Source of the DNA: an uncultured Candidatus Saccharibacteria bacterium | GTDB taxonomy: Bacteria; Patescibacteriota; Minisyncoccia; Phycocordibacterales; UBA9973 | Direction: 5' to 3' | DNA length: 54,791 nucleotides | Assembly: GCA_964610995.1 (NCBI GenBank) | Contig: CAZSWF010000003.1 | Location: forward strand, 1 to 54,791 | Shown: piece by piece, positions 1 through 50,050 of the stretch | Position numbering within the stretch: position 1 is the stretch's first letter | How the letters are laid out: every line of letters begins with the position of its first letter | Notes under the pieces: generated by a model | Database searches by the model: none | What the model was told of the DNA's origin: nothing | Seen by the model: the letters and a program-made list of their open reading frames with translations, nothing else | Made by a program: the position numbers and the translations under genes

Positions 1-2
1 GT

Positions 3-320: not shown

Positions 321-385
321 AATTGGCTTAAGTCGTCTTAAGTAGGCCATAGAATAATCTTAGGTTACAACCTAAGGTTGTTTTT

Positions 386-562: not shown

Positions 563-908
563 CCCTAAAGGAATTTTTAGCCATAGGAGCTACACAATTG
601 AAGAGTTATCGGGTCTTATAAGTAAAAATCAAAAGACTTTATTGCGATGGATTGAAAATGGATTGAAAACTGTCCCAGAAAGCAAGAAGCCAATTCTTAT
701 AATGGGTTTTGACTTGAAAGAATTTCTAAAGAAAAAAAGTACAAAAAAGAAAATTAAATTAAATCGGAATCAGTTTTATTGTCTGTCTTGTAAAGGGGCT
801 GTTTATGCAAAAAAGGGTTCTCTGGGAAAGCTCAGTAACAGAAAAATAGGTGTATGTGCTGTCTGTACTGGGAAAGTAACAAGGATAATTAAACCCTACC
901 AAAAATGA
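549..908 (+). CDS. Hypothetical element protein, HTH-like N-terminus plus CxxC...CxxC zinc ribbon
   Basis: YTIEELSGLISKNQKTLLRWIENGL resembles an HTH. CLSC...CAVC makes a four-Cys ribbon. Confidence 0.5.
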   Translation: MTKINPKGIFSHRSYTIEELSGLISKNQKTLLRWIENGLKTVPESKKPILIMGFDLKEFLKKKSTKKKIKLNRNQFYCLSCKGAVYAKKGSLGKLSNRKIGVCAVCTGKVTRIIKPYQK

Positions 909-973
909 CTATAAGATATTCTCGTCTACTGTCTAAATGTCCATTATTAGTAATAACCTAAAATATAAGAAAA

Positions 974-2080
974 ATGACAAAAATTATTTATCAAAATGAA
1001 TTAAGGAAAAGAGAATTTTTTGAACACTTGAAAGGTGCTGAGGGTTTTGCTGAAAGCTCCATAAATATGTTTGCTGAAGCAATTGACCAATGGCAAAAAT
1101 TTTCAGGGAATGAAGATTTTGTTAATTTTAATAAGACTAAAGCAATAGAATTTGTCTCGTGGCTTAAAACAAGAGGCAGTAAAACACCATCAGGGCAAGT
1201 TTCTCTTGCAACCCAATATAACTACATTCGGCGTATCAAAAGATTTTTACAATGGCTTTCTGACCAGCCAAACTATAGAAAAATACTTAAAAGCGATATA
1301 AACTTTTTGCGTCTATCAAAAAAAGATATTCAGATTGCGACATCTGGCACTACTAAGCAAATACCAACGCTTGAAGAATTTAAGCAAATAATTGAAAGCA
1401 TTGAAGTTAAAAATGAAATAGATAATAGGGATAGAGCAATGATTTGCCTAACACTTATTACAGGTATTCGTATTTCAGCTTTAATCTCATTAAAAATGAA
1501 AAGTTTTGATAAGAAAAATAAGTTATTTGACCAAAATCCAGCAGACGGTGTGAAAACAAAAAACTCAAAAAGAATACCAACAACATTTTTTCCTATAGGC
1601 TGGGACAAAGCAGAAAAGTATTTTATAGAATGGTACGAGTACCTTGAATCAAAAGGTTTTCAGCCAGAAGACCCGATTTTTCCATCAACACTAAATCTTT
1701 TTGGTTCAGAAAGTAATGCTTATAGTAAAGAGTTTATTAGTAAGGAGTTTTGGGGCGGTACAAATGGAGCTAGAAAGATTTTTGAAAAAAGGTGTAAAAA
1801 TGCTGACTTACATTATTTTAATCCTCATTCGCTCCGCCACGCTGTAGTAAACATTTTAAGCAAAATAAGACTTACGGAAGAAGAGAAGAAAGCAATCAGC
1901 CTCAATCTCGGACACGCTAATATAGGTACTACTTTCGGGTCTTATGGCTATGGTAGTATGAGTGATAAGAATGCTATTGAAATTGTGCAAAGATTAAAAA
2001 ATCAAAGTGATAGCAAAAATCAAATGGGTATTTCAGACGAAGATAAGGTCGTATTAAAAAGGATAGCTAGTAGTATTTAA
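974..2080 (+). CDS. Tyrosine recombinase / phage-type integrase
   Basis: Has an N-terminal SAM-like region. Catalytic signatures are TGIRISAL (Arg), HSLRHA (His-x-x-Arg) and LGHANIGTTFGSYGY (His...Tyr). Confidence 0.85.
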   Translation: MTKIIYQNELRKREFFEHLKGAEGFAESSINMFAEAIDQWQKFSGNEDFVNFNKTKAIEFVSWLKTRGSKTPSGQVSLATQYNYIRRIKRFLQWLSDQPNYRKILKSDINFLRLSKKDIQIATSGTTKQIPTLEEFKQIIESIEVKNEIDNRDRAMICLTLITGIRISALISLKMKSFDKKNKLFDQNPADGVKTKNSKRIPTTFFPIGWDKAEKYFIEWYEYLESKGFQPEDPIFPSTLNLFGSESNAYSKEFISKEFWGGTNGARKIFEKRCKNADLHYFNPHSLRHAVVNILSKIRLTEEEKKAISLNLGHANIGTTFGSYGYGSMSDKNAIEIVQRLKNQSDSKNQMGISDEDKVVLKRIASSI

Positions 2081-2119
2081 CCACTTGCTATGTAAAGAAT
2101 AGTAAAGTATACTAGATGT

Positions 2120-2656
2120 ATGGAATACTTAGATATATGCGATAGTGAAGGAAATAAATTAGGATTTACAAAATCAAAAAAAGAAGTCCACGAGCAAGGA
2201 CTTTGGCACAGGTCAGTTCATATTTGGATTGTTAATTCAAAAAGAGAAGTGTTAATACAAAAGCGTTCCCCTTTAATGGATAATCACCCAAATGAATGGG
2301 ATATTTCTTCAGCAGGACACGTTTCTGCAGGCGAAGATGATATGACTTCAGCACAAAGAGAAGTAGAAGAAGAAATTGGATTAAAACTTTTGCCTGAAAA
2401 CTTTATTCTTATTGGGACAGTGAAGCAAACTTCAGAAAGAACAGGATATATCAATAAAGAAGTAAACCCTGTATATGTTGTAAAAATGGATTTAGAACCA
2501 AAAAAAATCAAGAAGCAGGAAGAAGAAGTTTCTGAGGTAAAATTCTTACCTTATAAAGAACTAAAAAAAGTTATTGAAGCAAAAGACCAAACTTTTGTTC
2601 AACATCCTGCAGAATATAAATTACTATTTGAATTTTTAGAAAAAAACTATGAATAA
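2120..2656 (+). CDS. Nudix hydrolase (IDI-like subfamily architecture)
   Basis: Perfect Nudix box Gx5Ex7REVxEExGL in GHVSAGEDDMTSAQREVEEEIGL. Confidence 0.85.
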   Translation: MEYLDICDSEGNKLGFTKSKKEVHEQGLWHRSVHIWIVNSKREVLIQKRSPLMDNHPNEWDISSAGHVSAGEDDMTSAQREVEEEIGLKLLPENFILIGTVKQTSERTGYINKEVNPVYVVKMDLEPKKIKKQEEEVSEVKFLPYKELKKVIEAKDQTFVQHPAEYKLLFEFLEKNYE

Positions 2657-2834
2657 AGTAAAAGAATTTTATACAGCCAAAGAATTGGCTGACAAGCTAC
2701 GAGTAAACATAATGACTATTTACCGATACATTGATGCTAAAAAGTTAAAGGCATATAAGCTCGGTAAGGAATTTAGAATTGATAAGAAAGAGTTTGACAG
2801 TTTCTTGAATAAGGCAAAAACTAATGGAAAATAA
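2649..2834 (+). CDS. Excisionase-family helix-turn-helix DNA-binding protein
   Basis: 61 aa. ELADKLRVNIMTIYRYIDAKKLKAYKLGKEFRIDKKEFDSFL matches the MerR-like excisionase HTH pattern. It overlaps both neighbouring genes. Confidence 0.7.
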   Translation: MNKVKEFYTAKELADKLRVNIMTIYRYIDAKKLKAYKLGKEFRIDKKEFDSFLNKAKTNGK

Positions 2835-4431
2835 AAGTATAAAAATGATATACGGTGGCTACCACAGAAAATCTACTGAATCTGAGGATAGACAGGTTCT
2901 TTCTATTGATTCTCAGATTGATGAGAGTAAGAAAATTGCAGATAGCTTGGGTATAAAAGTTAAGCCAGAACATATCCTTTCAGAATCAAAGTCAGCAAAA
3001 GTAACTGGCAAGCGATTAAAGTTTCAACAAATGTTGGGTATGATTGAGCGTGGAGAAATAAACGGAATCATTGTTTGGCACGCAGACAGACTTTCACGAA
3101 ATGCTATGGATTCTGCTTTGCTCATTGACCTCATAGATAAAGGAAAACTCATTGAAATAGTTACACCAGCCCAAACATTCAAAAATACTCCACTGGATAA
3201 ATTTATGTTTATGTTCCAGTGTAGTCAGGCGAAAATGGAGAATGATAAAAAGGGTGTTGATGTAACTAGAGGGCTACATAAAAAAGCTAGTATGGGAATG
3301 TATCCCGCCTCAGCACCTACGGGATATAAAAATGATAAGTACGCAGAAAAAGGAAACAAAGTACCTCTAGTAGATGAGGTAAGATTTCCTCTTGTTAGAC
3401 AAATGATAGACCTTATGCTTACAGGAAATTACACTGTTGCTGAAATATGGAGAATCGCAAAGAATGAATGGGGTTTTACTATGCCAAACGGTAAAAAAAT
3501 TAGTAGAGCTACAGTCTATAGAATTTTCTCAAACCATTTTTATTATGGAAGATACGAATACCCTATGGGTAGCGGTAAATGGTATGACGGTATTCATACT
3601 CCGATGATGGAGGTTGAGGAATATGACAAGATTCAATTTATACTTGGCAAGAAAGGTAAACCTAGACCAAAGATACACATCTTTGATTTTACTGGAATGA
3701 TGCATTGCGGAGAGTGCGGAGCGAGTATCACAGCTGAGACTAAAATAAAAAGGCAAAAAAATGGCAACATTCACACCTATGTTTATTATCATTGCACTAA
3801 AAGAATAAACCCTAACTGTACACAGGGGTCTATTGAGGAGAAAGAACTAAAGAAACAGATTGTGGCAGAAATTGAGAGTATAGAAATTCCAGCAGAATTT
3901 CATAGTTTTGCTATGAAGTGGTTTAAGAAAGAGAACGAGAAAGAAATTGATGGCCGTAATGCCATTATAAAAGCCAACGAGAAAGCCTACAAGGCTTGTC
4001 TAGTGAAGATTGATGGCTTAACTGATATGAGAGCGGGTGGTGAAATATCAGCCGAAGAATTTGCGGAAAGAAAAATAAAATTCCTTGCAGAAAAGAAACA
4101 GCTTGATAATTTATACGGTGATACAAGTAAGAGAGTAGACCGATGGTTAGATACTGCCGATGATATGTTTACCTTTATTGAAAATGCAAAAGATAAATTT
4201 GAAACTGGAACGATTCAAACAAGACGCTCAATACTTTCAACCTTAGGTTCAGACCTCATTCTTAAAGACAAAATACTCAGTATTGATATAGAAAAATCAC
4301 TCTTTCCATTAAAAAGAGTTTCAAAAGAGTTAAACGCAATTAGTAAACGGTTAGAACCTCTAAAAACTATTGATAAACAAAAGGAATTTGACCTTTTGTG
4401 CGAGAAAAATCTCGTTATGCGGAGGATGTGA
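2824..4431 (+). CDS. Large serine recombinase
   Basis: YHRKSTESEDRQVLSIDSQ (catalytic Ser region), WHADRLSRN, recombinase domain, Zn ribbon CGECG...YYHCTKR, coiled-coil tail. The stop codon lies inside the tRNA 3' end. Confidence 0.9.
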   Translation: MENKSIKMIYGGYHRKSTESEDRQVLSIDSQIDESKKIADSLGIKVKPEHILSESKSAKVTGKRLKFQQMLGMIERGEINGIIVWHADRLSRNAMDSALLIDLIDKGKLIEIVTPAQTFKNTPLDKFMFMFQCSQAKMENDKKGVDVTRGLHKKASMGMYPASAPTGYKNDKYAEKGNKVPLVDEVRFPLVRQMIDLMLTGNYTVAEIWRIAKNEWGFTMPNGKKISRATVYRIFSNHFYYGRYEYPMGSGKWYDGIHTPMMEVEEYDKIQFILGKKGKPRPKIHIFDFTGMMHCGECGASITAETKIKRQKNGNIHTYVYYHCTKRINPNCTQGSIEEKELKKQIVAEIESIEIPAEFHSFAMKWFKKENEKEIDGRNAIIKANEKAYKACLVKIDGLTDMRAGGEISAEEFAERKIKFLAEKKQLDNLYGDTSKRVDRWLDTADDMFTFIENAKDKFETGTIQTRRSILSTLGSDLILKDKILSIDIEKSLFPLKRVSKELNAISKRLEPLKTIDKQKEFDLLCEKNLVMRRM

Positions 4432-4504
4432 GATTCGAACTCACGGGCCGGTGAAGGCCGACGGTTTAGTAAACCGTTGATTTAAACCACTCATCCAATC
4501 CTCC
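4420..4504 (-). tRNA. Type II tRNA (long variable arm, G73; Ser-like) with apparent anticodon ACU
   Basis: Hand-folded: acceptor GGAGGAT/ATCCTCC, anticodon stem ACGGT/ACCGT, loop TTACTAA, variable arm GGCC..GGCC, T arm GTGAG-TTCGAAT-CTCAC. No CCA is encoded. Confidence 0.75.
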
Positions 4505-4553
4505 AGATATGGTCGAGGACGATTTTAGCATCATCGACCATTTTATGCGAGGG

Positions 4554-4952
4554 CTAGCTCACCCGCTCACATAGCGGGCGGTACTGCGCGCGGTGATGGT
4601 AGAGGAAGTAAATGTTGAGGAGCAACATAAGGTTCCCCATGAGCGCACCTCCGGTCAGTAGGCCTCCATCGAGAAATGCGTGAAATGCGACGATGTTGAT
4701 CGTGATCGGCAGGATCAATAGCGCTGCAAATCCTGCCCGTCCTCGCCAGAGAGACACGAGTGCAATCGCAAACACAAATGCATTGATATACATAATGTAT
4801 CCGCCTGCATAGATCGCACTGATGAATGCAAATGCCTCAGGGTTTGAGTACATGTCTGCAGTCGGTGTGGGAAATACCCCAAATGCGCCGAGGATCGGCA
4901 TGACGAGCAGTAGACTCAGTGCAACCTTACAAATCACGTAAAATGTTTTCAT
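4554..4952 (-). CDS. Small integral membrane protein (about 4 TM), family unassigned
   Basis: 132 aa, hydrophobic throughout. The ORF is uninterrupted in GC-richer host-like DNA. Confidence 0.6.
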   Translation of the reverse strand: MKTFYVICKVALSLLLVMPILGAFGVFPTPTADMYSNPEAFAFISAIYAGGYIMYINAFVFAIALVSLWRGRAGFAALLILPITINIVAFHAFLDGGLLTGGALMGNLMLLLNIYFLYHHRAQYRPLCERVS

Positions 4953-5012
4953 ACTATATATGGGCTCATTATGGATATGTATGTAGTGTAGCAGATACTA
5001 TATACCAAACGA

Positions 5013-5612
5013 CTATTTACGAAATGTTTTCTTTATAAACATACGCACCAGTACTGCGACGATAGAAATGGCAAGCATCGCGACAATGATCGTGATCGCC
5101 TTGGGGCCAAGGTATGCTGTGAACGCATTGCCGGCATACACTCCTACAAATCCCCACAGATATGATCCTATTAGACTGTAGACTATATATCGTCTCGTAC
5201 GCACACCCCTGATCGCGGCAAACAAAGACGGTGTCGAACGCACAACAGGCAGTAGTTTGCCAAAGATAGCGATGATCGCTAAGTGTCGATCAAAGAGGTC
5301 CCATGAACGCTGGTATTTCTCATGAGTAACAAATCGTGACACCCAAGACAAATGTCTAAACTTCCTCCCGAGCAAAAAACCAGTCATATCCCCCGCAAAA
5401 CTTGTCGTACCTACAACAAGTGCGGCAACAAGTGGTGAGAGTACTCCTTGTGCAGCGAGACTGCCTGCCAAGAGTGCGATAGTTCCTCCTGGCAACACCG
5501 ACCCAATAATGGGGAGACCTTCGGTAAAAGAAAATACTCCAAGAAACAGTAGTTGTATCGGCAACCCTACCGTTTGTGCTGCGTTGATGATAGTAGTAGA
5601 AAGATCTCCCAT
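5013..5612 (-). CDS. DedA/VTT-domain family membrane protein
   Basis: FSFTEGLPIIGSVLPGGTIALLAGSLAAQG and GRKFRH...LPVVR are typical of the DedA/SNARE-associated domain. Confidence 0.8.
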   Translation of the reverse strand: MGDLSTTIINAAQTVGLPIQLLFLGVFSFTEGLPIIGSVLPGGTIALLAGSLAAQGVLSPLVAALVVGTTSFAGDMTGFLLGRKFRHLSWVSRFVTHEKYQRSWDLFDRHLAIIAIFGKLLPVVRSTPSLFAAIRGVRTRRYIVYSLIGSYLWGFVGVYAGNAFTAYLGPKAITIIVAMLAISIVAVLVRMFIKKTFRK

Positions 5613-5707
5613 ATATTTACAAAATCACTACCACAGCCGCCAAAAAAATCGTTGTTATCATATATATACGTTACTACTATACGGTGCAGTGTAGCATGAT
5701 ACCGTTC

Positions 5708-6145
5708 CTAGATTTTTCTTGAATCATACGCCCAGTGTAGCAATGCCTGTCTTTGGCGTGGTCGGCAATGGACATCTCCAGCGCGGCAATTGTTCCTAAT
5801 CTGCATCACATGTCTGCGCATAGCCATCCATCTTTTTATTTGTCTCTCATCGTCCTGTGTCCTGCGTCCCATATAATATCTGCAGTACCACTGAAACCAC
5901 CCTCTTGGATCTTGTGAATTGATCCAACCTTTGGCCTGCCACACAGAAAGTGACTGACTAGCGTTAACATTAAAATAATTGAGTTCTTTATGCCTCTTTT
6001 TATCTGGAGAAAGTTTTGCATTCTTCCACCAACTTTTTGGATACTCTTGTGGCGTATCAGAAAAATATAGACCCCCAAAAACTCCAAGCTCAAGCATTTC
6101 TTTGGGAGTTAGATCTGGTTTAAATCGTTCATCAAATTTTGTCAT
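5708..6145 (-). CDS. Conserved-looking hypothetical protein (Trp/Arg-rich, 145 aa)
   Basis: Clean ORF with a TGgTAGAAT box about 30 nt upstream. No family assigned from memory. Confidence 0.55.
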   Translation of the reverse strand: MTKFDERFKPDLTPKEMLELGVFGGLYFSDTPQEYPKSWWKNAKLSPDKKRHKELNYFNVNASQSLSVWQAKGWINSQDPRGWFQWYCRYYMGRRTQDDERQIKRWMAMRRHVMQIRNNCRAGDVHCRPRQRQALLHWAYDSRKI

Positions 6146-6212
6146 TATGTGTTGATACCATATAGTATAAACTCATTCTACCATTTCAGCTTCCAATTTC
6201 GATTTCCAATTT

Positions 6213-6300
6213 TGGCGGAGACGATGGGATTCGAACCCATGAGGCTGTGACACCTACCCCCTTAGCAAGGGGGCACATTCGACCACTCTGACACGTCTCC
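6213..6300 (-). tRNA. tRNA-Ser(GCU), CCA encoded
   Basis: GGAGACG...anticodon stem CCCCC/GGGGG, loop TTGCTAA, long variable arm, T arm GGGTTCGAATCCC, ends ...CGTCTCCGCCA. Confidence 0.9.
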
Positions 6301-23259: not shown

Positions 23260-23332
23260 TCCGCCCGCATGGACTTGAACCATGGACCACCGAGGTATAA
23301 GCTCGGCGCTCTACCAACTGAGCTACAGGCGG
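23260..23332 (-). tRNA. tRNA with anticodon UAU (Ile-AUA decoding by anticodon)
   Basis: Hand-folded: CCGCCTG/CGGGCGG acceptor, D arm GCTC-AGTTGGTA-GAGC, anticodon stem CCGAG/CTCGG, loop CTTATAC, T arm CATGG-TTCAAGT-CCATG, A73. No CCA is encoded. Confidence 0.75.
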
Positions 23333-29996: not shown

Positions 29997-30389
29997 GGGG
30001 ATGCTTGGTTTCGACATCATACATGTCGATCTACTCATGCATGCCGAGCATGGACGTACTCTCGTAAACCGTCGTCCAGACACGATATCTGGCAACAGCA
30101 TCGCTAAGGTGAAGTCTCCATTTGCTAACGCATTTGGCTTCGCTCCAGCACTCGCCTAATTTAGGTCAGTCTGGTGTCCTCTGTGTAGACTTCCGATATA
30201 CATATGAGGGCAACATTCATCGGAATAGGACGTAGTACCTGCTTCAGTACTGCTCCAAACTAGTCGAAGCTCGGGAAGGATGTCGTTTTGTACAGCCTTG
30301 AGACACCTTCCTAACCACGAGACTGTACTACGCATGGAGAAATGATGGATCAGGTACGATGCACGGGGGTTCGATTCCCCCCATCTCCA
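29997..30389 (+). ncRNA. ssrA: tmRNA (SsrA)
   Basis: 5' GGGGATG pairs with 3' CATCTCC, including the G3:U70 Ala identity pair. T arm is GGGGGTTCGATTCCCCC. Internal tag frame ends ...FAPALA-TAA (stop at 30157-30159). Confidence 0.88.
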
Positions 30390-30469
30390 CACTTGATTTT
30401 TTTGTATAATATGTAATAATATGCAAAAATAAATTTAACCCCATTCTTTACACAAAAAACTGACAACTT

Positions 30470-35158: not shown

Positions 35159-35752
35159 CTACTCCAGCCCTAGCCTGTCACAAATATCCTTGTGGATCTC
35201 ATCGATCGTGCGCTCCCCATTGATCTCGAGGAAGTCGACGTCGGGAGATGCCTTGAGCATATCTATCGCTGGCATGACGTTGGCATGAAACCATGCAATA
35301 CGCTCTGCCCGATCGTGTCCATCAAGGTCATCGGGGCGGCCACGTCCGATGAGTCGTTCATTGCTCCACGCGTCTCCTACCGAGAGAAATATGACGTGCA
35401 GCTTCCATCCATAAAACTCTGCCGCAGAGATGAGTACTGGCACCTCAGATGAAACACGTGGCGTACCATCGATAAACACAAACGATTGACCTGTGTATTG
35501 ACTGATCAGTTCATGACTCCACACATGGATACCGATAAATGCTGGTGGGAGCTTGCCCTCGTCCATCAAAGCCTTGGTCTGGGTAGCGGTATACGAATCG
35601 GTCGCACTAAATGCACGAAAGATTGCTCCGGTCTCGAGATGAAGTATCTCATCGGTAGGATACAGTGCGCGAACTTTTTCTTGGAACAGTGCAGCCTGTG
35701 TGCCCTTGCCAGCACCAGACTGTCCGATAAATATATAGGCTTGTTTTTGCAT
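35159..35752 (-). CDS. adk: Adenylate kinase-like nucleoside monophosphate kinase
   Basis: P-loop GQSGAGKGTQ, IDGTPRV (compare DGFPR). Occupies the canonical secY-adk-map position. Confidence 0.7.
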   Translation of the reverse strand: MQKQAYIFIGQSGAGKGTQAALFQEKVRALYPTDEILHLETGAIFRAFSATDSYTATQTKALMDEGKLPPAFIGIHVWSHELISQYTGQSFVFIDGTPRVSSEVPVLISAAEFYGWKLHVIFLSVGDAWSNERLIGRGRPDDLDGHDRAERIAWFHANVMPAIDMLKASPDVDFLEINGERTIDEIHKDICDRLGLE

Positions 35753-37488: not shown

Positions 37489-38070
37489 TTATGCCTCTTT
37501 TTTTTCTTCTACTTTTACCTCTGGTGCCGCTTCTACTTTGAGACCAAAGACGTGCTTGGTAGCGACCTTTTCGAGAGCTCGCATACAGGCTCGAGCAGTA
37601 TTGAGTTTGTTTTTACTACCTGAGACTACTTTACCAGAAATATCTTTGAGTCCAGCAAGTGTCACAATGTCGCGAAGCGCAGCACCTACCACGAGCCCCT
37701 TACCTTGGTTTGGGAACAACATGACACGTGATGCATTGTACTTGGCTGCGATATCATGTGGGATGGAGTTGGTCTTGGTCGCCTTGATCTTGATTGCGTG
37801 CTTCTTTGCATCCTTGAGCGCCTTGGCAATAGCAAGTGCAGTGTCATTACCCTTCCCTGTACCAAGTCCTACCATACCTTTTTTGTCTCCGATAATCATT
37901 GAAACAGCAAAGCTCATACGACGCCCACCAGCAACCACACGGGTCACTCGACGAATATCGAGAATCTTTTGGTCGACATCCTTGACGCGATCACCAAATG
38001 ATCTGCCGCCGTCTCGTCGTGGACGTCGTTCTGGTCGAGATGAAGTTGTAGGGGTAGTTGGTGTAGTCAT
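37489..38070 (-). CDS. rpsE: 30S ribosomal protein S5 (with a basic/Thr-Pro N-terminal extension)
   Basis: IRRVTRVVAGGRRMSFAVSMIIGDKKGMVGLGTGKG. Confidence 0.9.
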   Translation of the reverse strand: MTTPTTPTTSSRPERRPRRDGGRSFGDRVKDVDQKILDIRRVTRVVAGGRRMSFAVSMIIGDKKGMVGLGTGKGNDTALAIAKALKDAKKHAIKIKATKTNSIPHDIAAKYNASRVMLFPNQGKGLVVGAALRDIVTLAGLKDISGKVVSGSKNKLNTARACMRALEKVATKHVFGLKVEAAPEVKVEEKKEA

Positions 38071-43411: not shown

Positions 43412-43759
43412 TTATTTTTTCTTGGCGTCAGCAGTTGTTGCCTTTGCGGACTTTGCTGCTGAGATTTCAGCTTCTTTTTTCTTTTGATCGATATCTTTCT
43501 GCATCTTACCACCGTGTCGAGTAAACTTGCGGGTGGGTGAAAACTCTCCCAAACGGTGCCCTACCATGTCTTCGGTCACGAGGACGTCGATGTGTTGCTT
43601 GCCGTTGTGTACGCCAAAGGTAAATCCGACCATTTGTGGAGCGATCTGACTTGCGCGAGCCCAGGTCTTGATGACGCCAGCTGACATAGGCGCTTTGCCC
43701 TCAATCTTCTTGAGGAGCTTTTCATCAATATACGGGCCTTTGGCGAGTGATCGTGTCAT
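43412..43759 (-). CDS. rpsS: 30S ribosomal protein S19 (Lys-rich C-terminal extension)
   Basis: [15 protein letters not shown]...[29 protein letters not shown]. Confidence 0.9.
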
Positions 43760-43802: not shown

Positions 43803-43847
43803 GATGTATAGTAGCAAATTCTAAACCAATGTCAAATACCAGGCGCC

Positions 43848-44108
43848 CTATCGATAAATATCATGATCCCCTATGAAATAGAACGTTGCTTCAGAACCAT
43901 TCCTTTCAAATTCAAATACAATCCTATAGCTATAATCCACCGAAAAAGCCCACAAATCACGTAATTCACCATGGAGCTTATGTGTTTTAAGGCTTGTAGC
44001 AAAAGGATTTTTTAGAAAGACGGCTTCTTTCTTTTTTGCTTTGATCTGTATTGGTCGTGGTACTTTTCTGTACTCTCTTTTAAATCGTGCTGTATAAAAG
44101 ATTTCCAT
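43848..44108 (-). CDS. RelE/ParE-superfamily toxin
   Basis: 86 aa. ...KLHGELRDLWAFSVDYSYRIVFEF...YFIGDHDIY pattern. Lies 8 nt after the antitoxin gene. Confidence 0.75.
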   Translation of the reverse strand: MEIFYTARFKREYRKVPRPIQIKAKKKEAVFLKNPFATSLKTHKLHGELRDLWAFSVDYSYRIVFEFERNGSEATFYFIGDHDIYR

Positions 44109-44116
44109 ACAGCAAT

Positions 44117-44335
44117 CTATTTCAATAAATCGTCCAAGGAGTTCAGTCGGTACCGTTTTCCGGCCTTCGCATCTCGCTGACTTGCCTTGATCTCTCGGAT
44201 AATAGCCCGCTCTTTGAGCATACGTACTGCATCGCGCATAAATTCGCTTGTTGAGGTGTACATGCCACTCTCGACAATCTCGTCGATTTCTTTCTTGAGC
44301 GCAGGAGAAACGGATATAGACAATATTTGTCGCAT
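44117..44335 (-). CDS. Ribbon-helix-helix (CopG/ParD-like) antitoxin
   Basis: MRQILSISVSPALKKEIDEIVESGMYTSTSEFMRDAVR. Start refined (TGtTACAGT 6 nt upstream). Confidence 0.7.
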   Translation of the reverse strand: MRQILSISVSPALKKEIDEIVESGMYTSTSEFMRDAVRMLKERAIIREIKASQRDAKAGKRYRLNSLDDLLK

Positions 44336-44341
44336 AGAGCT

Positions 44342-44350
44342 ACTGTAACA
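44342..44350 (-). promoter_or_regulatory. Extended -10 TGtTACAGT, 6 nt before the antitoxin ATG (leaderless-type)
   Basis: Minus strand reads TGtTACAGTagctctATG. Confidence 0.4.
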
Positions 44351-44357
44351 CAATGTA

Positions 44358-44756
44358 TTACAGCAATACAAGGACCTTCGGTACAAATACGATCAGACCC
44401 ACGACTACTGCACCCACCACCGTCAGGAGTACCGCCCCTGCAGCCACATCCTTGGTGTCACGGGCATAGGGGTGGTAGGTAGGGCTCGTAAGATCTATAT
44501 CGATCTCGAGCGCAGTGTTGAAGCCCTCTGCGACCAGTACCGACGTGATCGCCAGCACAAGTACCGCCCACTCCCCTGGACTGATCTGTAGTACAAAGCC
44601 GAGCACTACTACTACCACTGCTGCAAGTGCATGCACCCACGCATTGTGCTGTGTCCGGAAAATGATCGCTATCCCCCGCAGCGCATGCCGGAAGCTCTGC
44701 GCCCGTGCAATGATAGAGAAGCGTTTCTTTTCGGACATGGGTGAAGGTGTGTTCAT
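44358..44756 (-). CDS. dgkA: Prokaryotic diacylglycerol/undecaprenol kinase family (DgkA-like) membrane protein
   Basis: FRHALRGIAIIFRTQHNAWVH, 3 TM, EGFNTALE, DTKDVAAGAVLL. Confidence 0.8.
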   Translation of the reverse strand: MNTPSPMSEKKRFSIIARAQSFRHALRGIAIIFRTQHNAWVHALAAVVVVVLGFVLQISPGEWAVLVLAITSVLVAEGFNTALEIDIDLTSPTYHPYARDTKDVAAGAVLLTVVGAVVVGLIVFVPKVLVLL

Positions 44757-44762
44757 AGAGGA

Positions 44763-44768
44763 AGTATA
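44763..44768 (-). promoter_or_regulatory. -10 TATACT, 6 nt before the dgkA ATG (leaderless-type)
   Basis: Minus strand reads cgaTATACTtcctctATG. Confidence 0.4.
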
Positions 44769-44785
44769 TCGTGCATTGAGACAAA

Positions 44786-44811
44786 TAAAAAAGCCCTCTC
44801 GATGTGAGAGG
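44786..44811 (-). terminator. Intrinsic terminator after the 141-aa gene
   Basis: Minus strand reads CCTCTC-acatc-GAGAGG, then gc and TTTTTTATTT. Confidence 0.65.
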
Positions 44812-44819
44812 ACTATTTC

Positions 44820-45245
44820 TTAGCCAAGGACAAGTTTTGCTTCTATTACTTGCCCGCGAACCGCATAGTGCCCAGTAATAGTCGCAAACCCGTCTAGTGC
44901 CCGTTCAATGGTTGCGAACATTATCTGCAGGCTTCCGTGATCTTTTGGTGTAACACTGTGTGCAGCCTTTCCGGTATTGAATGCAGAAAATATTATCTGC
45001 TTCGAATCTTTCAACCTATTGTGCTCATCAAAATTGGCTTTCACCAACCGATCGAAATCAAGGAATGCAAACTGTGGGAAAGAATGCGTAATCTGGGGAC
45101 ATTTTTTGGCTATCCTCTCCTTGAGAACTTTTACAATTTCACCAATGGAATTCTTATTTTTCCATTGAAATGTAGCACCGGTCCATAACATAGACGTAAC
45201 CGTGTCCATGAAAGGGCCTTTGTAAACTTGGGATGAATGGTTCAT
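44820..45245 (-). CDS. Hypothetical protein (141 aa), orphan cassette
   Basis: Clean ORF with its own promoter and terminator. No motif recognised. Confidence 0.55.
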   Translation of the reverse strand: MNHSSQVYKGPFMDTVTSMLWTGATFQWKNKNSIGEIVKVLKERIAKKCPQITHSFPQFAFLDFDRLVKANFDEHNRLKDSKQIIFSAFNTGKAAHSVTPKDHGSLQIMFATIERALDGFATITGHYAVRGQVIEAKLVLG

Positions 45246-45263
45246 GTTTTTTAAATTTGGGTG

Positions 45264-45292
45264 ATTTTATAGTGTTTGAGTTGGAATGTCAA
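45264..45292 (-). promoter_or_regulatory. Promoter TTGACA-17-TAAAAT fused to the upstream terminator T-run
   Basis: Minus strand reads ttttatttTTGACAttccaactcaaacactaTAAAATcac. Confidence 0.5.
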
Positions 45293-45321
45293 AAATAAAA
45301 AACCCTCCGATTAAGAGGGTT
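45291..45321 (-). terminator. Intrinsic terminator after the 117-aa gene
   Basis: Minus strand reads AACCCTC-ttaatcg-GAGGGTT followed by TTTTTATTTTT. Confidence 0.7.
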
Positions 45322-45417
45322 TGAGATGTCATTTTTTCTGAATGTTTTTATAGACCAGCATATTGCTCTCATGTGTCTCAAGCAGTCCCCTGAAAGCCCG
45401 GCGATGGTGTCGCCCTT

Positions 45418-45771
45418 CTACACCCGACAAAAAGTGATACTTTTCCAATAACTTTTGTATTCTTGCCACTGTATCTTTGCGATAGGTACTTTGCATCGAT
45501 ACAAAACAAATGATTCGTCGGACACGTTTCTCCGAGTAAACTTTTTTTTATGAAGTCGTGTCTCAACACATAGTATATTGGCAAGTTCTCCAGCAGAGTC
45601 ATCCGACAGTGCAAGAAGTACATCAAACAACTCTTTGTGTGTTGCGTTCATACATACTCCCACGACGTGTAGTAAAAACAATGGTTCTGAAGAGTACAAA
45701 AGATCAATAAGATCTGCATCAATCTGATCAATAGAAATGATGGAAGTCTGTTCGTTATATATCTTTTTCAT
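45418..45771 (-). CDS. Hypothetical protein (117 aa), orphan cassette
   Basis: Clean ORF with its own promoter and terminator. No motif recognised. Confidence 0.5.
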   Translation of the reverse strand: MKKIYNEQTSIISIDQIDADLIDLLYSSEPLFLLHVVGVCMNATHKELFDVLLALSDDSAGELANILCVETRLHKKKFTRRNVSDESFVLYRCKVPIAKIQWQEYKSYWKSITFCRV

Positions 45772-45787
45772 ATGTAGTTTTTTCTCG

Positions 45788-45815
45788 ATAGTACTCTTTT
45801 ATGAGGCGTTGTCAA
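45788..45815 (-). promoter_or_regulatory. Promoter TTGACA-16-TACTAT fused to the upstream terminator T-run
   Basis: Minus strand reads ttttttTTGACAacgcctcataaaagagTACTATcg. Confidence 0.5.
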
Positions 45816-45841
45816 AAAAAAGAACCGGTAAAAACCGGTTC
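45814..45841 (-). terminator. Intrinsic terminator after the helicase gene
   Basis: Minus strand reads GAACCGGT-tttt-ACCGGTTC followed by TTTTTTTT. Confidence 0.8.
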
Positions 45842-45852
45842 GATGTAAAGAA

Positions 45853-48800
45853 CTATATTTTCTTCTTTCTTGTATAAAGAACATTATTTAAACTATAAAG
45901 AACATCATCTCCGACTCCTTCCAACTTTAACTTTTTAGCAACCCTATAAAGAAACTCTTTATCAACCTTTCCTTTTTCGATAGCTAACACCTGGGCTATA
46001 AAACCAGCTCCTTTACCAAATTGCCCGAAAGACATAGCTTTGAAATCGGCGTTTGGTATATTAACCAGATCTTTATAACTCATTATTCCGTTCTTTTTAA
46101 GTTCTTCTGTATAAACAATATTCTTATCCTCATCTGAAGGCATCCATCCAAGCCATATTGCGAGTTCGTCCATAACAGAAAAAGTAATACGTTTAAATAT
46201 CTTATTCAGAGAGAAACGTAAAAACTTTGATGCTTTGCCTAATGAACCAAACTCCATACTTCTAAACTTTACTGGCCTTATTTTTTTTAACTCCCAATAA
46301 TTAAAGATACCGTAGTCAGCCAGTATTTTCTTAGCTAATTCTTTTTTACCTTCATCACTAGTTAGCCAGCCAAGTTTAGAGGATACTTGGTCTAAATCAA
46401 TATTATCAATTCGAATGCTGGTATTATGAGGAATATCAAGAATCCTACCAAGTAACATTACACCTGAACCAATTTCTCCGAACTTAGTCATACCGAGCTT
46501 TCTTTTTCCAAAGCCTATTAAGCTACTGTGATCAACAATGCCTCGTTTTGCAAGTAACTCTTTTAGGTAATCTATCTTAGACCACCCTAAATATTCTGCC
46601 GCCAATTCGAGTTTGCTTCTTGTTAGATTGGTAGCTGGCTCTTTAAGAATAATTGAGAAAAACTTCTGACCGTGACCAATGACGCCATATTTTAAAGCCT
46701 TCAATTTTAACATATCGTACTTTTTTAAGTCGCCGTAGCTTCGTATGTTATGTTTAGCTAGTTCTAAGAGGTAATGTTCTTTTTTCTGTTCCTCTGATAA
46801 TTCCCAACCTAGTATCGATGCAATTTTTTCATACAATACAACTGTATTCAAATCAAAGGATCTTGTATTAAGAATCGCACCAGCAAAGTTTTTGATTTTC
46901 TTAAAATCTCCAAACTCTACTTTTCCTAGCTGAAAAAGAGAAAACGAAACAAGACTCCAGTAATCGGTAATACCATGTTTTCTAAACTCTTCTTTGTATT
47001 TATTAATTCGTTCCTCTTCAGAGGGCATCCAATTGATTTTTTTAGCAACTTCATTAAGCGTATCGTAAGTAACAATAAATTTCTTATAATTCTTTTGTCC
47101 GATACGAACACCTAAATATCTACAAAAATAAATTGGGGAGCTAAAAACTCCAAAGTTTAACCTTGTAAATTTAAAAGTGCCAAATTTATAAACTAGATCC
47201 CAATAATCATTTATACCATTCAACTTTAACTGCTCCTTTGCCATTTCAATAAGGTTCCCCTTTTCTTTCATCAATTCATGCGACTTCACGCTTTTGTTTT
47301 CGATGAACTCAATACTTTTAACAGGAATCAGTTCTTTGAGATTAATTTGTTCAGGGCCATATACGCCTTGACCAAGGTAACCACGGATAAATCCTGCAAG
47401 TTCTTTTTCTTCATCAGTGAGACTTTCCCAGACTTTCTTCCAGGTTAATCCTTGCTTAAGGAGAGTGAATATTTTCATTTCAACTTCACGCTGTCCTGTA
47501 TACCCAGCAACAAGGCCGCCATTGAGATAAATATTTACCCCGAAAATTGAAAGAAGAGATCCGATCTCATGTCGTTCACTTTTAAATACACCATCAACCA
47601 CCAAGAGATCTTCCCCTGGAATGAAGCGGGTACCCCGACCAATTTCCTGGACTGATTTCCAAAGTGCTGAAACACTGTATGGGCGAAAACTCAAGATACC
47701 ATTAATTTCTGGAACATCTGCACCCTCACCAAGTTTTTCACTCGTGAACATGATAGTCGTCTCATTATTATGATATCGATCCATGCGACGATTGAATTCG
47801 GTCATCCCAATTTCACCACTGACATAATCAGCGATAAAGTTTACACCGTCTCCATGTTTTTCATCGATCAACTGCTTGAGTTCATTATTACAGAAGAATG
47901 ACAACTCCTCAGCAATTTTTATTCGATCAACGAATACTAACCATTTACGGTCAATTACTGATTTTGCGCCAACTGCAGTAAGTACCTCATTATCCTTAAC
48001 AAAAAGCTCTTCAAGAATTGCTTTCATTATAGGGATATTTTTAGCAACCACTTTTGCTGTTTGCTGTACCGGTAATTCTCTTGTCTGAGACTTTACAGAT
48101 GTTAGATCTATATATGTCCGAGCATTGATATACCGTACTGGCTTAAGTTCTCTGCGGTTTATGCACTCAAGGATACTTGCATGATATGCAAGACGTTCAT
48201 GATATGGAACAATTTCACCATTTTCTTCTTCGGGCTTGATAGCTTCAAAGAATATGAAAGGATTATTCCATCTCTGCCCTTTTGTTGTTGCAGAACCACC
48301 TACAAAAAATGCGGTATGCATTTTGTTTTCAAGGATAATACGAATACGATCAGTTACCCGATGCGATTCGTCACATACTACTAATCCAGCTTTTTTCTTA
48401 TACAGAATATCTACTGTCTTAGTTGTAAGACCTTGATAGCATGCCAGAGTTACCTTAGCATTTTTCTCAAACTCTTTTGACGATCCTGATCTACCCGCAA
48501 GAATTCTAATGTCATCATCAGAGAACATCGGAAGCCACATTTTTACATCTCCATATATCAACGGTTCATCGTCATCATCTTCTGATAACAATGCTGGCAA
48601 ACCAATCATTTGGTCTGCAATATTGATACGGGATGTAAACAGTGTAATTTCAAATTTCTCTTCGACACCAAATACTCGCAGTGTGTCATAGAAGGCACGA
48701 ATAATCGCACCCCAGATCATTGACTTACCTGCACCTGTTGGAATTTCTACCAAAGGGCGTGTAAACCAATGTTCAAAAGCTTTAATGATTGCTTGAAGCG

Positions 48801-49080
48801 CTTCACGCTGAGTTTGCCTCCATGGACGCTCTATACCATACTGTAGTGGATTGAGCGTTTTTTTGAGTTGAGTAATGAAGTAATCCCGAATTTTTTCAAC
48901 CTCCAATAAGGAGATCATGAAATTGCTGATATATTCATCTTGGTCAAGATTGGGAGAAAATTCTTGTTCTGCCCAATCTTTTCGATTCATACCTTCAGGC
49001 AGGGAGAACCCATTACCTAAAGCAATTCCAGTCAAGTTTTCTATAACCTGTACTGGTTTGTTTGCTAGTAAATTTTTCAT
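45853..49080 (-). CDS. SF2 (DEAD/DEAH, ResIII-like) helicase/translocase with six C-terminal ~74-aa tandem repeats of unknown family
   Basis: PTGAGKS (aa 114-120), CDESH (236-240), SAT (263-265), QEIGRGTR (478-485). Aa ~605-1055 is the repeat array. Very AT-rich. Confidence 0.85.
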   Translation of the reverse strand: MKNLLANKPVQVIENLTGIALGNGFSLPEGMNRKDWAEQEFSPNLDQDEYISNFMISLLEVEKIRDYFITQLKKTLNPLQYGIERPWRQTQREALQAIIKAFEHWFTRPLVEIPTGAGKSMIWGAIIRAFYDTLRVFGVEEKFEITLFTSRINIADQMIGLPALLSEDDDDEPLIYGDVKMWLPMFSDDDIRILAGRSGSSKEFEKNAKVTLACYQGLTTKTVDILYKKKAGLVVCDESHRVTDRIRIILENKMHTAFFVGGSATTKGQRWNNPFIFFEAIKPEEENGEIVPYHERLAYHASILECINRRELKPVRYINARTYIDLTSVKSQTRELPVQQTAKVVAKNIPIMKAILEELFVKDNEVLTAVGAKSVIDRKWLVFVDRIKIAEELSFFCNNELKQLIDEKHGDGVNFIADYVSGEIGMTEFNRRMDRYHNNETTIMFTSEKLGEGADVPEINGILSFRPYSVSALWKSVQEIGRGTRFIPGEDLLVVDGVFKSERHEIGSLLSIFGVNIYLNGGLVAGYTGQREVEMKIFTLLKQGLTWKKVWESLTDEEKELAGFIRGYLGQGVYGPEQINLKELIPVKSIEFIENKSVKSHELMKEKGNLIEMAKEQLKLNGINDYWDLVYKFGTFKFTRLNFGVFSSPIYFCRYLGVRIGQKNYKKFIVTYDTLNEVAKKINWMPSEEERINKYKEEFRKHGITDYWSLVSFSLFQLGKVEFGDFKKIKNFAGAILNTRSFDLNTVVLYEKIASILGWELSEEQKKEHYLLELAKHNIRSYGDLKKYDMLKLKALKYGVIGHGQKFFSIILKEPATNLTRSKLELAAEYLGWSKIDYLKELLAKRGIVDHSSLIGFGKRKLGMTKFGEIGSGVMLLGRILDIPHNTSIRIDNIDLDQVSSKLGWLTSDEGKKELAKKILADYGIFNYWELKKIRPVKFRSMEFGSLGKASKFLRFSLNKIFKRITFSVMDELAIWLGWMPSDEDKNIVYTEELKKNGIMSYKDLVNIPNADFKAMSFGQFGKGAGFIAQVLAIEKGKVDKEFLYRVAKKLKLEGVGDDVLYSLNNVLYTRKKKI
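45916..47268 (-). repeat. Coding tandem repeat array: six ~69-81-aa units
   Basis: Anchors are NGINDYWDL(621), HGITDYWSL(702), HNIRSYGDL(777), RGIVDHSSL(846), YGIFNYWEL(923), NGIMSYKDL(997). LGW/INW Trp residues fall at 684, 759, 833, 905 and 979. Confidence 0.8.
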
Positions 49081-49089
49081 TATGCAGGC

Positions 49090-49096
49090 CCTCCTT
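49090..49096 (-). promoter_or_regulatory. Canonical Shine-Dalgarno AAGGAGG, 9 nt before the helicase ATG
   Basis: Minus strand reads ggccAAGGAGGgcctgcataATG. The SD sits in the loop of a GGCC/GGCC mini-hairpin. I saw no comparably strong SD at the other gene starts I inspected by eye. Confidence 0.6.
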
Positions 49097-49135
49097 GGCC
49101 GTTTTTAAAGAGTTTTGTGAATATTATTTTTTATT

Positions 49136-49165
49136 TATATAACCATGAATATAGATATAAGTCAA
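49136..49165 (-). promoter_or_regulatory. Putative promoter TTGACT-18-TATATA for the helicase
   Basis: Minus strand reads atTTGACTtatatctatattcatggtTATATAaat, just after the rplB terminator. Confidence 0.4.
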
Positions 49166-49181
49166 TATCATTGCCTAATAC

Positions 49182-49207
49182 AAAAACCACCCATACGGGT
49201 GATTTTT
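49182..49207 (-). terminator. Intrinsic terminator directly after rplB
   Basis: Minus strand reads CACCC-gtat-GGGTG followed by GTTTTTG. Confidence 0.6.
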
Positions 49208-49213
49208 GAGAGA

Positions 49214-50050
49214 TTATTTCTTCCCAACTTTTCGTCTCGTGATGACGTCGTTGTTTGAGTATTTCTTGGGAGTACGAGTCTTGCGACCGCCGGTGACCTT
49301 GCCCCACAGTGTCTTGGGACGCTTGGTACCACGGCCTTGTACACCTTCACCACCACCGTATGGGTGATCGACAGGGTTCATGGCAGTACCTCGGACGGTA
49401 GGACGGATACCCTTCCATCGTGAGCGACCAGCCTTACCATAGCGAACGAGCTTGTTCTCGTCATTGGAAACTGTACCGAGTGTTGCCCAGCAGGTGTCCT
49501 GTACGCGTCTGATCTCGGTCGATGGCATCTTGAGCTGCGTGTAGCCGTCGTTTTGCGCAATAACCTGCGCAAATGAACCTGCTGATCGGACCATCTTTGC
49601 GCCAGCACCTGGCTTGATCTCAATGTTGTATACAAATGCACCACTAGGGATCGCTGCAAGTGGGAGGCGGTTGCCTTGCTCGATAGGAGCAGTCGCAGAA
49701 ACGGTGAACATGTCTCCTACTTTCACACCCTTGGGGAGTACGACGTAGCGCTTTTCACCATCACGGTAGATCGCAAGTCCAATAAATGCAGAACGGTTTG
49801 GGTCGTATTCGATCGAATCAATACGTGCGGGAATGTCATGCTTGTTGTACAAAAAGTCTACATCACGGTAGAGACGCTTGTTGCCTCCCCCTTTGTGACG
49901 AGTGGTGATACGACCCATGTTGTTGCGGCCCACGTGTCGCTTGCGACCCTTGGTCAATGCCTTGAGTGGAGTAGTGCGAGTCAACACCTTGCGATAGTCA
50001 ATCGTAAGTGTTTGTCTCTGTCCTGGTGATGTGGGTTTGCGTGATTTCAT
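49214..50050 (-). CDS. rplB: 50S ribosomal protein L2
   Basis: GRNNMGRITTRHKGGG...MNPVDHPYGGGEG. Confidence 0.93.
   Translation of the reverse strand: MKSRKPTSPGQRQTLTIDYRKVLTRTTPLKALTKGRKRHVGRNNMGRITTRHKGGGNKRLYRDVDFLYNKHDIPARIDSIEYDPNRSAFIGLAIYRDGEKRYVVLPKGVKVGDMFTVSATAPIEQGNRLPLAAIPSGAFVYNIEIKPGAGAKMVRSAGSFAQVIAQNDGYTQLKMPSTEIRRVQDTCWATLGTVSNDENKLVRYGKAGRSRWKGIRPTVRGTAMNPVDHPYGGGEGVQGRGTKRPKTLWGKVTGGRKTRTPKKYSNNDVITRRKVGKK

Follow-up and report, generated by a model that had tools for sequence, protein, structure and literature searches.

RadD (YejH), the restriction subunit HsdR, Hef and the phage helicases of phrog_16 belong to one clade of ResIII-type motors. They share RecA-like domains and the motifs I, II (DExH), III and VI. 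Other nucleic-acid enzymes are followed by a basic array of small helical modules. Topoisomerase V from Methanopyrus has 12 double helix-hairpin-helix domains, (HhH)2. Further (HhH)2 or HhH folds are the HhH of NAD ligase, the C-terminal domain of the RNA polymerase α subunit (α-CTD), NusA AR and the N-terminal domain of Rad51. We describe here a gene from contig CAZSWF010000003.1 (assembly GCA_964610995.1) of an uncultured Candidatus Saccharibacteria bacterium. We analysed a stretch of 54,791 nucleotides of this contig, called the window. The gene encodes a helicase-repeat protein of 1075 amino acids (the query), in which a superfamily 2 (SF2) motor precedes six tandem repeat units. Its motor has the RecA-like domains and the four motifs of the ResIII clade, and its overall design is that of the tandem-HhH enzymes. 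As an SF2 motor that carries an accessory array of repeats, the protein falls within a known type, and the repeat domain family is new. We read it, with a probability of about 0.5, as an accessory translocase or helicase of DNA, which a new repeat array would tether or target by binding nucleic acid.

The gene is an uninterrupted open reading frame (ORF) with an ATG start, and two independent Logan contigs encode the identical protein. The motifs that an earlier, sequence-only reading had named as a complete SF2 motor are all in place: PTGAGKS at amino acid 114, CDESH at 236, SAT at 263 and QEIGRGTR at 478. We aligned the motor with its orthologues (A1, 10 orthologues), and the residues invariant in this alignment are given in Table 1. 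Pfam ResIII matches amino acids 87-266 (E 3.5e-14; 53.5 bits, cutoff 22.5). The protein is placed in SF2 by this match, by its two RecA-like domains and by motifs I, II, III and VI. The best library match of the motor is phrog_16, a 'DNA helicase' family of PHROGs (E 3e-25). Likewise, the family profile ranks RadD first in the PDB (6jde, E 3.9e-13), ahead of a type I R subunit and Hef.

Nevertheless, the motor differs from these families. The query scores only 25.5 bits against the RadD model of NCBIfam (NF053632, cutoff 720). The similarity is restricted to the motor, the PDB matches cover no more than this part, and no RadD-like C-terminal region aligns. Against the EcoAI HsdR model (NF046051, cutoff 550) the query scores 29 bits. 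The Pfam scan detected neither a nuclease nor another effector domain in the protein, and its neighbours are rplB and two orphan ORFs instead of hsdM and hsdS. Since the scores against the NCBIfam equivalogs are far below their cutoffs, the motor is placed by sequence as a distinct branch of the clade of RadD, HsdR and phrog_16, outside those families. The N-terminal 86 amino acids (without a Pfam match), the region after the motor and the whole C-terminal half are specific to the family of the query.

The C-terminal half consists of six contiguous units at amino acids 606-1056, of 72-79 amino acids each (about 74). We scored them with a hidden Markov model (HMM) built from about 409 units of other proteins, leaving out the units of the query. 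The six units total 305 bits under this profile; 200 shuffled versions of the C-terminal half gave 6.3 bits at best. The sequence-only reading had placed six units at about amino acids 605-1055, with tryptophan anchors 72-75 amino acids apart. Both observations hold. Each unit scores 38-65 bits, and the anchors that close the first five units (684, 759, 833, 905 and 979) are spaced by 75, 74, 72 and 74. The phase of the units is shifted with respect to that reading. They start at 'PSEEE' and end at 'LGW', and this phase fits the orthologues, where single units begin and end at those points. Pairwise identity among the six units is 23-34%, and no tandem repeat was found at the DNA level in the array region. 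So, the units are old duplications.

The consensus of the unit is SEEEKKEKYREALAKHGITDRESLLKKGVKKFKKLDFGPFGKGKAFASAILGKTVKNITKETLEEIADKLGW. Its best conserved positions are L13, G17-I18, D20-R21, L24, F32, F37 and G41-K42-G43, followed by F46, L51-G52, L63, A67 and L70-G71-(W/F). Helices 1 and 2 are joined by an 'L-x-x-x-G-I' turn, and an interhelical hairpin, F-G-x-(F/Y)-G-K-G, is conserved. The array is basic, with an isoelectric point (pI) of 9.55 and a net charge of +24. The motor has a pI of 5.6.

We modelled the unit with AlphaFold. Unit 6 alone gave a pLDDT of 87.4 and a pTM of 0.75 (10-sequence alignment). Units 5 and 6 together reached a pLDDT of 96.4 and a pTM of 0.86 (45-sequence alignment). 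The models present five helices per unit, and the high pTM of the two-unit model indicates a fixed orientation between units. This predicted orientation, in units that abut without linkers, suggests that the modules form a rod or solenoid instead of beads on a string.

The libraries of known domains searched here do not contain the unit. Pfam, NCBIfam and PADLOC gave zero matches on amino acids 560-1075, even with permissive thresholds on single units. PHROGs gave one weak match, to phrog_29818, a family of unknown function. A profile of 111 units found only sub-threshold matches among the PDB sequences, to the fingers of Pol gamma (E 0.3) and to the RNA polymerase α-CTD (E 0.41). Foldseek found no neighbour of the two-unit model in BFVD (E>2, TM<=0.33). 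Literature searches returned no description of this repeat, nor of a function for INT_rpt (PF14882), the Pfam 'integrase repeat unit' that occurs in some orthologues. By its sequence, the unit is a domain not described before and new to these libraries, in agreement with the earlier statement that it could not be matched to a known repeat family.

Several candidate relationships were considered. The sequence-only reading had likened the start of the unit (EL.K.GI..Y..L) to the SAP/helix-extended-helix (HeH) type, with which it shares a helix, a glycine-containing turn and a second helix. However, a SAP motif has about 35 amino acids, and the unit has 74 and five helices. Neither single units nor the complete array matched Pfam SAP or HeH at E<=10, and Foldseek found no such neighbour, so we do not retain this assignment. 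A fold of the (HhH)2 or α-CTD type was considered because of the F-G-x-F-G-K-G hairpin and the 'L...GI' turn, which resembles HhH hairpins. The weak top matches of the unit are indeed the α-CTD, NusA AR and Rad51-N, and the consensus unit matches Pfam HHH_5 at E 0.098. Nevertheless, none of them is significant. The unit has 72-75 amino acids and its five helices in a different order, and TM-scores are about 0.3 or lower. In Foldseek the single unit gave E>3 with a TM near 0.3, and the two-unit model finds none of these folds. The likeness to HhH folds is a lead only.

Likewise, no relationship of the unit to INT_rpt was found. In hhalign against 15 INT_rpt units from orthologues, the probability was 5.9% and only a 17-column 'helix-GI' segment was aligned. 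The query protein has no Pfam INT_rpt match. Finally, four concatenated identical consensus units matched 72 small-helical Pfam families, and we dismissed these signals because concatenation sums sub-threshold scores. The sigma-70 region 4 (r4), HTH_26 and HTH_3 families match only in this artefact-prone scan, and the real protein matches none of them. Those helix-turn-helix (HTH) matches cross the unit junction (LEEIADKLGW, then SEEEKK). The junctions themselves (L..IA..LGW-x-S-EE....Y, e.g., amino acids 970-995, about 46096-46173) resemble an HTH signature like that of sigma-70 region 4, a likeness seen only through the concatenated scans.

To see where the unit occurs, we searched 1.84 billion representative proteins exhaustively with an HMM of ten units. 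At E<=1e-3 there were 130 matching proteins, of which 110 are at E<=1e-10. They correspond to about 130 protein clusters. A total of 415 full units (median pI 8.96) was mapped. Their arrays, usually of several units (range 1-13), are nearly always C-terminal, and the units abut without linkers. A word-indexed homologue search found nothing with the ten-unit profile, and only one protein, P0018, with the C-terminal half. A genome scan used a subset of 19 'FPPYGKG' units, and all its matches with organism names are Patescibacteria, including Peregrinibacteria. A scan of IMG/VR for the motif FPP[FY]GKGxA found no relative. Judged from these sequence matches, the new domain family appears to be confined to bacteria of the candidate phyla radiation (CPR).

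The partners of the unit are diverse. The N-terminal region of 35 unit-bearing proteins falls in one BLAST cluster with the motor region of the query. In a Pfam scan of 68 unit-bearing proteins, ResIII or DEAD was present in 20-24 and SWI2_SNF2 in 10. At least three or four SF2 subfamilies are represented, judged by sequence. Another 31 proteins have an unassigned helical head of about 116 amino acids. Heads of 70-95 amino acids are present in 16; they look HTH- or excisionase-like by eye (WAEYL...TIRRRL) and have no family match. Sigma-70 r2 and r4 domains were found in 2 unit-bearing proteins, and INT_rpt together with the unit in 3. P0018 (L106, 7001-9484) combines INT_rpt with eight units and has no helicase. 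INT_rpt was thus seen here on the helicases P0003 and P0004 and on the non-helicase P0018, not on integrases, and its family name may be misleading. Adjacent array genes were also observed. In a Peregrinibacteria metagenome-assembled genome (MAG; PMDG01000063.1, L091, 3303-10208), four adjacent genes each encode a short N-terminal head and an array. Two adjacent genes of the same kind are present at L092 (2630-5543). Each of these is a tandem paralogue cluster.

The orthologues of the helicase share the N-terminal extension, the motor and the region after it, which ends in 'SIEFIE'. Over amino acids 1-605, P0002-P0006 are 50-62% identical to the query, P0007 and P0008 38-39%, and about ten more 26-36%. 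What follows the SIEFIE junction is variable. P0003 and P0004, whose motors are 60-62% identical to the query over about 600 amino acids, carry INT_rpt arrays at this place (P0003, E 1e-42), and P0006 an INT_rpt-like array. They are like the query in the motor, the junction and the tandem arrangement of small helical modules, but the type of module differs, and INT_rpt has no established function. P0002 has a 'PPKDW...NP.WF...YHP' repeat with a weak HTH_17 match, and P0005 has one unit of the query type together with the same repeat. In P0007-P0009 one unit is accompanied by other sequence. The more distant orthologues (28-39%) have 1-5 units of the query type. With a shared junction, varied arrays and no relationship between the unit and INT_rpt, different arrays of small modules fill one position in one helicase family.

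Conversely, colinear arrays are found on different motors. The six-unit array of P0023 is colinear with that of the query at 38% identity, although the two motors share only 22%. In the fragment P0022, units 2-6 have colinear counterparts (49.6% over 407 amino acids). Going by these alignments, the array travels as a block. Each unit of the query is closest (45-67%) to a unit of another protein, and for units 3, 5 and 6 the closest relative is the positionally equivalent unit of P0022. This individual conservation by position suggests that the units are not interchangeable.

Four alternatives compete with the reading as an accessory DNA translocase. In descending order of likelihood they are a protein-interaction scaffold, a defence effector, an RNA remodeller, and a mobile-element helicase or assembly artefact. 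The first considers the array as a protein-protein scaffold, like the TPR, Sel1 or HEAT solenoids, that recruits the motor to a protein complex. Rigidly packed all-alpha tandem repeats (pTM 0.86) are typical of scaffolds, and the unit has no significant similarity to any DNA-binding fold. In addition, many members of the family are little beyond the head of about 116 amino acids and the array, and four paralogues are adjacent at one Peregrinibacteria locus. On the other hand, the positive charge is consistent among the units, as their median pI indicates. Every partner domain that could be identified (helicases, sigma-70) works on nucleic acid, although the small heads are HTH-like by eye only, and the position of the array is interchangeable with INT_rpt and HTH_17-like arrays. 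We regard a scaffold as unlikely.

For the array, we infer nucleic-acid binding as the best explanation. This draws on the basic charge, the helicase and sigma-70 partners and the heads that look HTH-like, the exchange with INT_rpt or HTH_17-like arrays at the same position, and the glycine-lysine hairpin between helices. The gene product would be an ATP-driven SF2 (DExH) nucleic-acid translocase or helicase. An extended surface of its array would bind nucleic acid, most probably duplex DNA. Such binding may serve to load, tether or target the motor, with a higher affinity or processivity on a given substrate as the result. In the cell, the protein would have an accessory part in DNA repair, recombination, replication restart or DNA work coupled to transcription. 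The gene is an accessory one and is housed in an integration-tolerant gap between rplB and a resident prokaryotic diacylglycerol kinase (DAGK) gene. An SF2 translocase with six modules of no described family, as the sequence-only reading proposed, is supported by the motifs, the HMM and the library searches.

Several observations weigh against this interpretation. Pfam Helicase_C on amino acids 375-486 scores 21.2 bits, slightly under its cutoff of 23.5, although it is above the cutoff in orthologues (30-34 bits). The unit has no significant match to a known DNA- or RNA-binding family (α-CTD, E 0.41; HHH_5, E 0.098), and in Foldseek the one- and two-unit models have no neighbour in the PDB (E>2, TM<=0.33). 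Basic helical repeats are also able to mediate protein-protein contacts. The eight homologue neighbourhoods reveal no conserved partner and no pointer to a pathway. Finally, P0007 and P0008 are located beside a gene for an RNase with an RNB domain (RNase II/R) or near one for RNase III, which bears on the choice between DNA and RNA.

A bolder reading can be drawn from the positional conservation of the units and their predicted rigid packing. By analogy with TALE, PUF and mTERF proteins, the unit might be a new fold, maybe specific to Patescibacteria, which builds a rigid modular solenoid that reads nucleic acid. We hold this as a speculative and rather improbable idea. If true, each positionally conserved unit would contact a defined stretch of an extended DNA or RNA target. 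Helicases, sigma factors and small HTH proteins would all be directed by one 'address module' to the same class of sites in the genome, and the INT_rpt arrays of the orthologues would be interchangeable modules with other specificities.

The neighbouring genes bear on the possibility of an RNA helicase or ribonucleoprotein remodeller, whose array would bind structured RNA such as rRNA and whose place within the ribosomal-protein cluster would reflect a part in ribosome biogenesis. The gene is found between rplB (49214-50050) and rpsS (43412-43759), DExH SF2 motors include RNA helicases, and P0007 and P0008 are beside the RNB-domain RNase and near RNase III. By eye, these two orthologues also present segments like a double-stranded RNA-binding domain after their single unit, but Pfam did not confirm them. 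However, a terminator-like hairpin on either side insulates the gene, which also has a Shine-Dalgarno (SD) sequence of its own. No orthologue is within a ribosomal operon among the loci examined, and the same gap holds unrelated metabolic and cell-wall genes in relatives. The nearest characterised motors (RadD, HsdR, Hef and helicases of phage replication modules) act on DNA. Likewise, the other partners of the unit, sigma-70 and the heads that are HTH- or excisionase-like by eye, point to DNA. A function on RNA is doubtful.

Around the homologues, the neighbours are housekeeping genes such as YchF, UDG, Dus, a DNA polymerase III clamp-loader subunit, sigma-70 and the RNases. P0007 and P0008 share their upstream neighbours, Dus and a RuvB_N/DNA_pol3_delta2 protein, which suggests vertical inheritance in one lineage. 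The contig of P0006 (L102) encodes a second SF2 helicase of 817 amino acids (3784-6237, minus strand), about 850 bp from the orthologue of the query. Its Pfam families (DEAD, ResIII, SWI2_SNF2 and Helicase_C) are the same as those of P0016.

In the window, the gap between rplB and rpsS also holds the two orphan ORFs (orf117 and orf141), the DAGK gene, and a pair of a RelE-like protein and a ribbon-helix-helix (RHH) protein. The sequence-only reading had argued from an insertion in an otherwise ultra-conserved S10 operon. The comparison with relatives contradicts this argument. The gap between the genes of L2 (rplB) and S19 (rpsS) spans 85 bp to 7.4 kb in 62 related Patescibacteria, and at least 12 of these 62 genomes have DAGK in it. 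The larger gaps contain ordinary genes: a GT2 glycosyltransferase, a polysaccharide deacetylase, amino-acid kinase and aldehyde dehydrogenase proteins (ProB/ProA-like), an amidohydrolase and a Mur ligase. The source organism of the window is a Patescibacterium of the Paceibacteria/Nomurabacteria type, and its L2 protein is 90% and 87% identical to those of two MAGs. The relative with 87% has only DAGK in the gap, and the one with 90% carries a GT2 and deacetylase cargo between L2 and DAGK. The rplB-rpsS junction is a general insertion-tolerant site in Paceibacteria-like Patescibacteria. So, the site is no marker of defence cargo.

This matters for the view of the protein as a single-gene effector against phages or mobile elements, part of an island with RelE/RHH, in which the array senses foreign nucleic acid and the motor executes or signals. 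The insert is of low GC with its own expression signals, the RelE-like and RHH pair is about 1.5 kb away, and the helicase gene is sporadic and rare among genomes. Moreover, close orthologues swap their C-terminal arrays in a way reminiscent of how conflict systems diversify their target-recognition modules. Nevertheless, the only PADLOC match is a 35-residue Walker-A match to type IV DinG (21 bits), which is not meaningful, and the protein lacks a nuclease or other effector domain. Restriction, methylase, nuclease, Cas and other defence genes are absent from the eight homologue neighbourhoods, and the upstream neighbours shared by P0007 and P0008 suggest vertical inheritance. DAGK separates the toxin-antitoxin pair from the helicase, so these are separate insertions. 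With no defence island at eight loci, the defence role proposed in the sequence-only reading lacks support, and we consider it improbable.

The toxin-antitoxin pair (43848-44386) is located between DAGK and rpsS. It consists of a RelE/ParE-like toxin (86 amino acids, GC 0.349) and the RHH antitoxin, and it is a second low-GC insertion, separate from that of the helicase. The antitoxin ORF is listed from a TTG that overlaps the 3' end of DAGK, and an internal ATG (MRQILS...) is the likelier start. A promoter-like TTGACA-16-TACTAT is present ahead of rpsS (43808-43835).

The helicase gene with orf117 and orf141 is marked as a lineage-specific insertion by its low GC, a strong SD sequence where such sequences are rare, and terminator-like hairpins on both sides. 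The helicase gene has a GC of 0.365 and a GC at third codon positions (GC3) of 0.30. By comparison, rplB has 0.52 and 0.53, and rpsS has the same GC3. The orphan ORFs have a GC of 0.37 (orf117) and 0.425 (orf141). They have no family matches in Pfam, PADLOC, PHROGs or NCBIfam, and no homologues at the other helicase loci. The gene was probably acquired horizontally from another Patescibacterium with lower GC. Horizontal acquisition, which the sequence-only reading had suggested, is plausible given the GC3 difference, the unusual SD sequence and the other or missing cargo in the closest relatives.

The source of the gene could also be a phage, a plasmid or another integrated mobile element, for which it would be the replicative or recombination helicase, or the insert could be an assembly artefact. 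The best library match of the motor is a phage family, and GC breaks at the borders of the insert. However, the matches in phages, plasmids and IMG/VR have only 21-30% identity and cover the generic SF2 core, never the repeats. Genes for integration, replication, structure or transfer are missing from the insert, and the flanks show no direct repeats: a search for direct or inverted repeats as insertion scars gave only short matches at chance level. The captured phage or plasmid helicase of the earlier proposal thus finds no relative in these searches. An assembly chimera is likewise unlikely despite the GC breaks, since two independent per-run assemblies match the window at 44576-49361 with 100% identity and span both junctions. 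Taken together, an origin of this kind or an artefact is very improbable.

The expression signals of the gene are distinctive in part. Its AAGGAGG is the strongest SD sequence among the 55 ORFs checked in the window, as had been anticipated. In this window, 44 of the 55 ORFs lack an SD match of at least 4 nucleotides within 25 nucleotides upstream. Matches of at least 6 nucleotides are present in only three ORFs: the helicase, 35159-35752 and 37489-38070. The SD sequence of the helicase is in the loop of a small palindrome, GGCC-AAGGAG-GGCC (49087-49100), which could occlude or present the ribosome-binding site. The predicted terminator was found as a hairpin with a T8 tail. For the TTGACT promoter, the hexamer exists, but the promoter scan found no -10 element meeting its rules behind it, and the region holds no more promoter-like sites than chance would give (13 found against 15.9 expected). 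The gene had also been described as the most AT-rich of the window. In fact, its GC ranks ninth lowest of 55 ORFs, and the ORF at 2120-2656 is lower (0.313).

Table 1. Features of the helicase-repeat gene and its insert, with coordinates in the window.
Feature	Coordinates	Strand	Basis or remark
Coding sequence of the 1075-amino-acid helicase-repeat protein, stop included	45853..49080	-	ORF call and repeat mapping
N-terminal extension, amino acids 1-86, family-specific, ENLTGIALGNGF.LP motif	48823..49080	-	Conserved in the 10-orthologue alignment A1
SF2 DExH motor, amino acids 87-486, ResIII and Helicase_C	47623..48822	-	Pfam, PHROGs, PDB profile
Motif I (Walker A) PTGAGKS, amino acids 114-120	48721..48741	-	P114, T115, G116, G118, K119 and S120 invariant in A1
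Motif II CDESH (DExH), amino acids 236-240	48361..48375	-	D237, E238 and H240 invariant in A1
Motif III SAT, amino acids 263-265	48286..48294	-	Invariant in A1
Motif VI QEIGRGTR, amino acids 478-485	47626..47649	-	Q478, G481, R482, G483 and R485 invariant in A1
Conserved post-motor region, amino acids 487-605	47266..47622	-	Ends in the SIEFIE junction before the arrays in all orthologues
Repeat unit 1, amino acids 606-684	47029..47265	-	38.0 bits, E 8e-14
Repeat unit 2, amino acids 685-759	46804..47028	-	65.4 bits; 46% identity to the positionally equivalent P0022 unit
Repeat unit 3, amino acids 760-833	46582..46803	-	56.5 bits; 51% identity to P0022 unit 2
Repeat unit 4, amino acids 834-905	46366..46581	-	47.2 bits
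Repeat unit 5, amino acids 906-979	46144..46365	-	62.3 bits; modelled jointly with unit 6
Repeat unit 6, amino acids 980-1056	45913..46143	-	54.4 bits; 67% identity to the last P0022 unit
Shine-Dalgarno AAGGAGG	49090..49096	-	9 nucleotides upstream of the helicase ATG
TTGACT, -35-like hexamer, putative promoter	49160..49165	-	Read from the sequence
Terminator-like hairpin after rplB	49188..49201	-	Separates the helicase from the upstream ribosomal genes
Intrinsic-terminator-like hairpin GAACCGGTTTTTACCGGTTC with T8 tail	45814..45841 (hairpin 45822-45841)	-	11 nucleotides past the helicase stop
Orphan ORFs of 117 amino acids (45418-45771) and 141 amino acids (44820-45245)	44820..45771	-	Share the low-GC insert with the helicase

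Other parts of the window were also observed. Positions 1-4000 are of low GC (0.31-0.37), with ORFs at 549-908, 974-2080, 2120-2656 and 2824-4431. The first three are more AT-rich than the helicase, and the last is marginally lower in GC (0.359 against 0.365). This block may be another acquired island. A tmRNA gene is present at 29997-30392 on the plus strand (116.5 bits), and three tRNA genes are located at 4420-4504, 6216-6300 and 23260-23332 (minus strand).

A large part of bacterial diversity belongs to the Patescibacteria (CPR), and the majority of their proteins lack an assigned function. In this lineage, the insertion-tolerant rplB-rpsS site corrects a tempting argument from context in favour of defence cargo. 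The finding also defines a compact, confidently predicted domain that is absent from Pfam, NCBIfam and PADLOC and has no structural neighbour in the PDB or BFVD. This domain recurs as arrays on the nucleic-acid machinery of Patescibacteria: SF2 helicase subfamilies, sigma-70 and proteins with HTH-like heads. The units conserved by position, an array better conserved than the motor, and the swaps of whole arrays are unusual for simple multivalent tethers, and these three features make specificity worth testing. DNA binding by the unit, if true, would make it a new accessory module through which motors and transcription factors are loaded or targeted, and about 130 protein clusters would be annotated at once.

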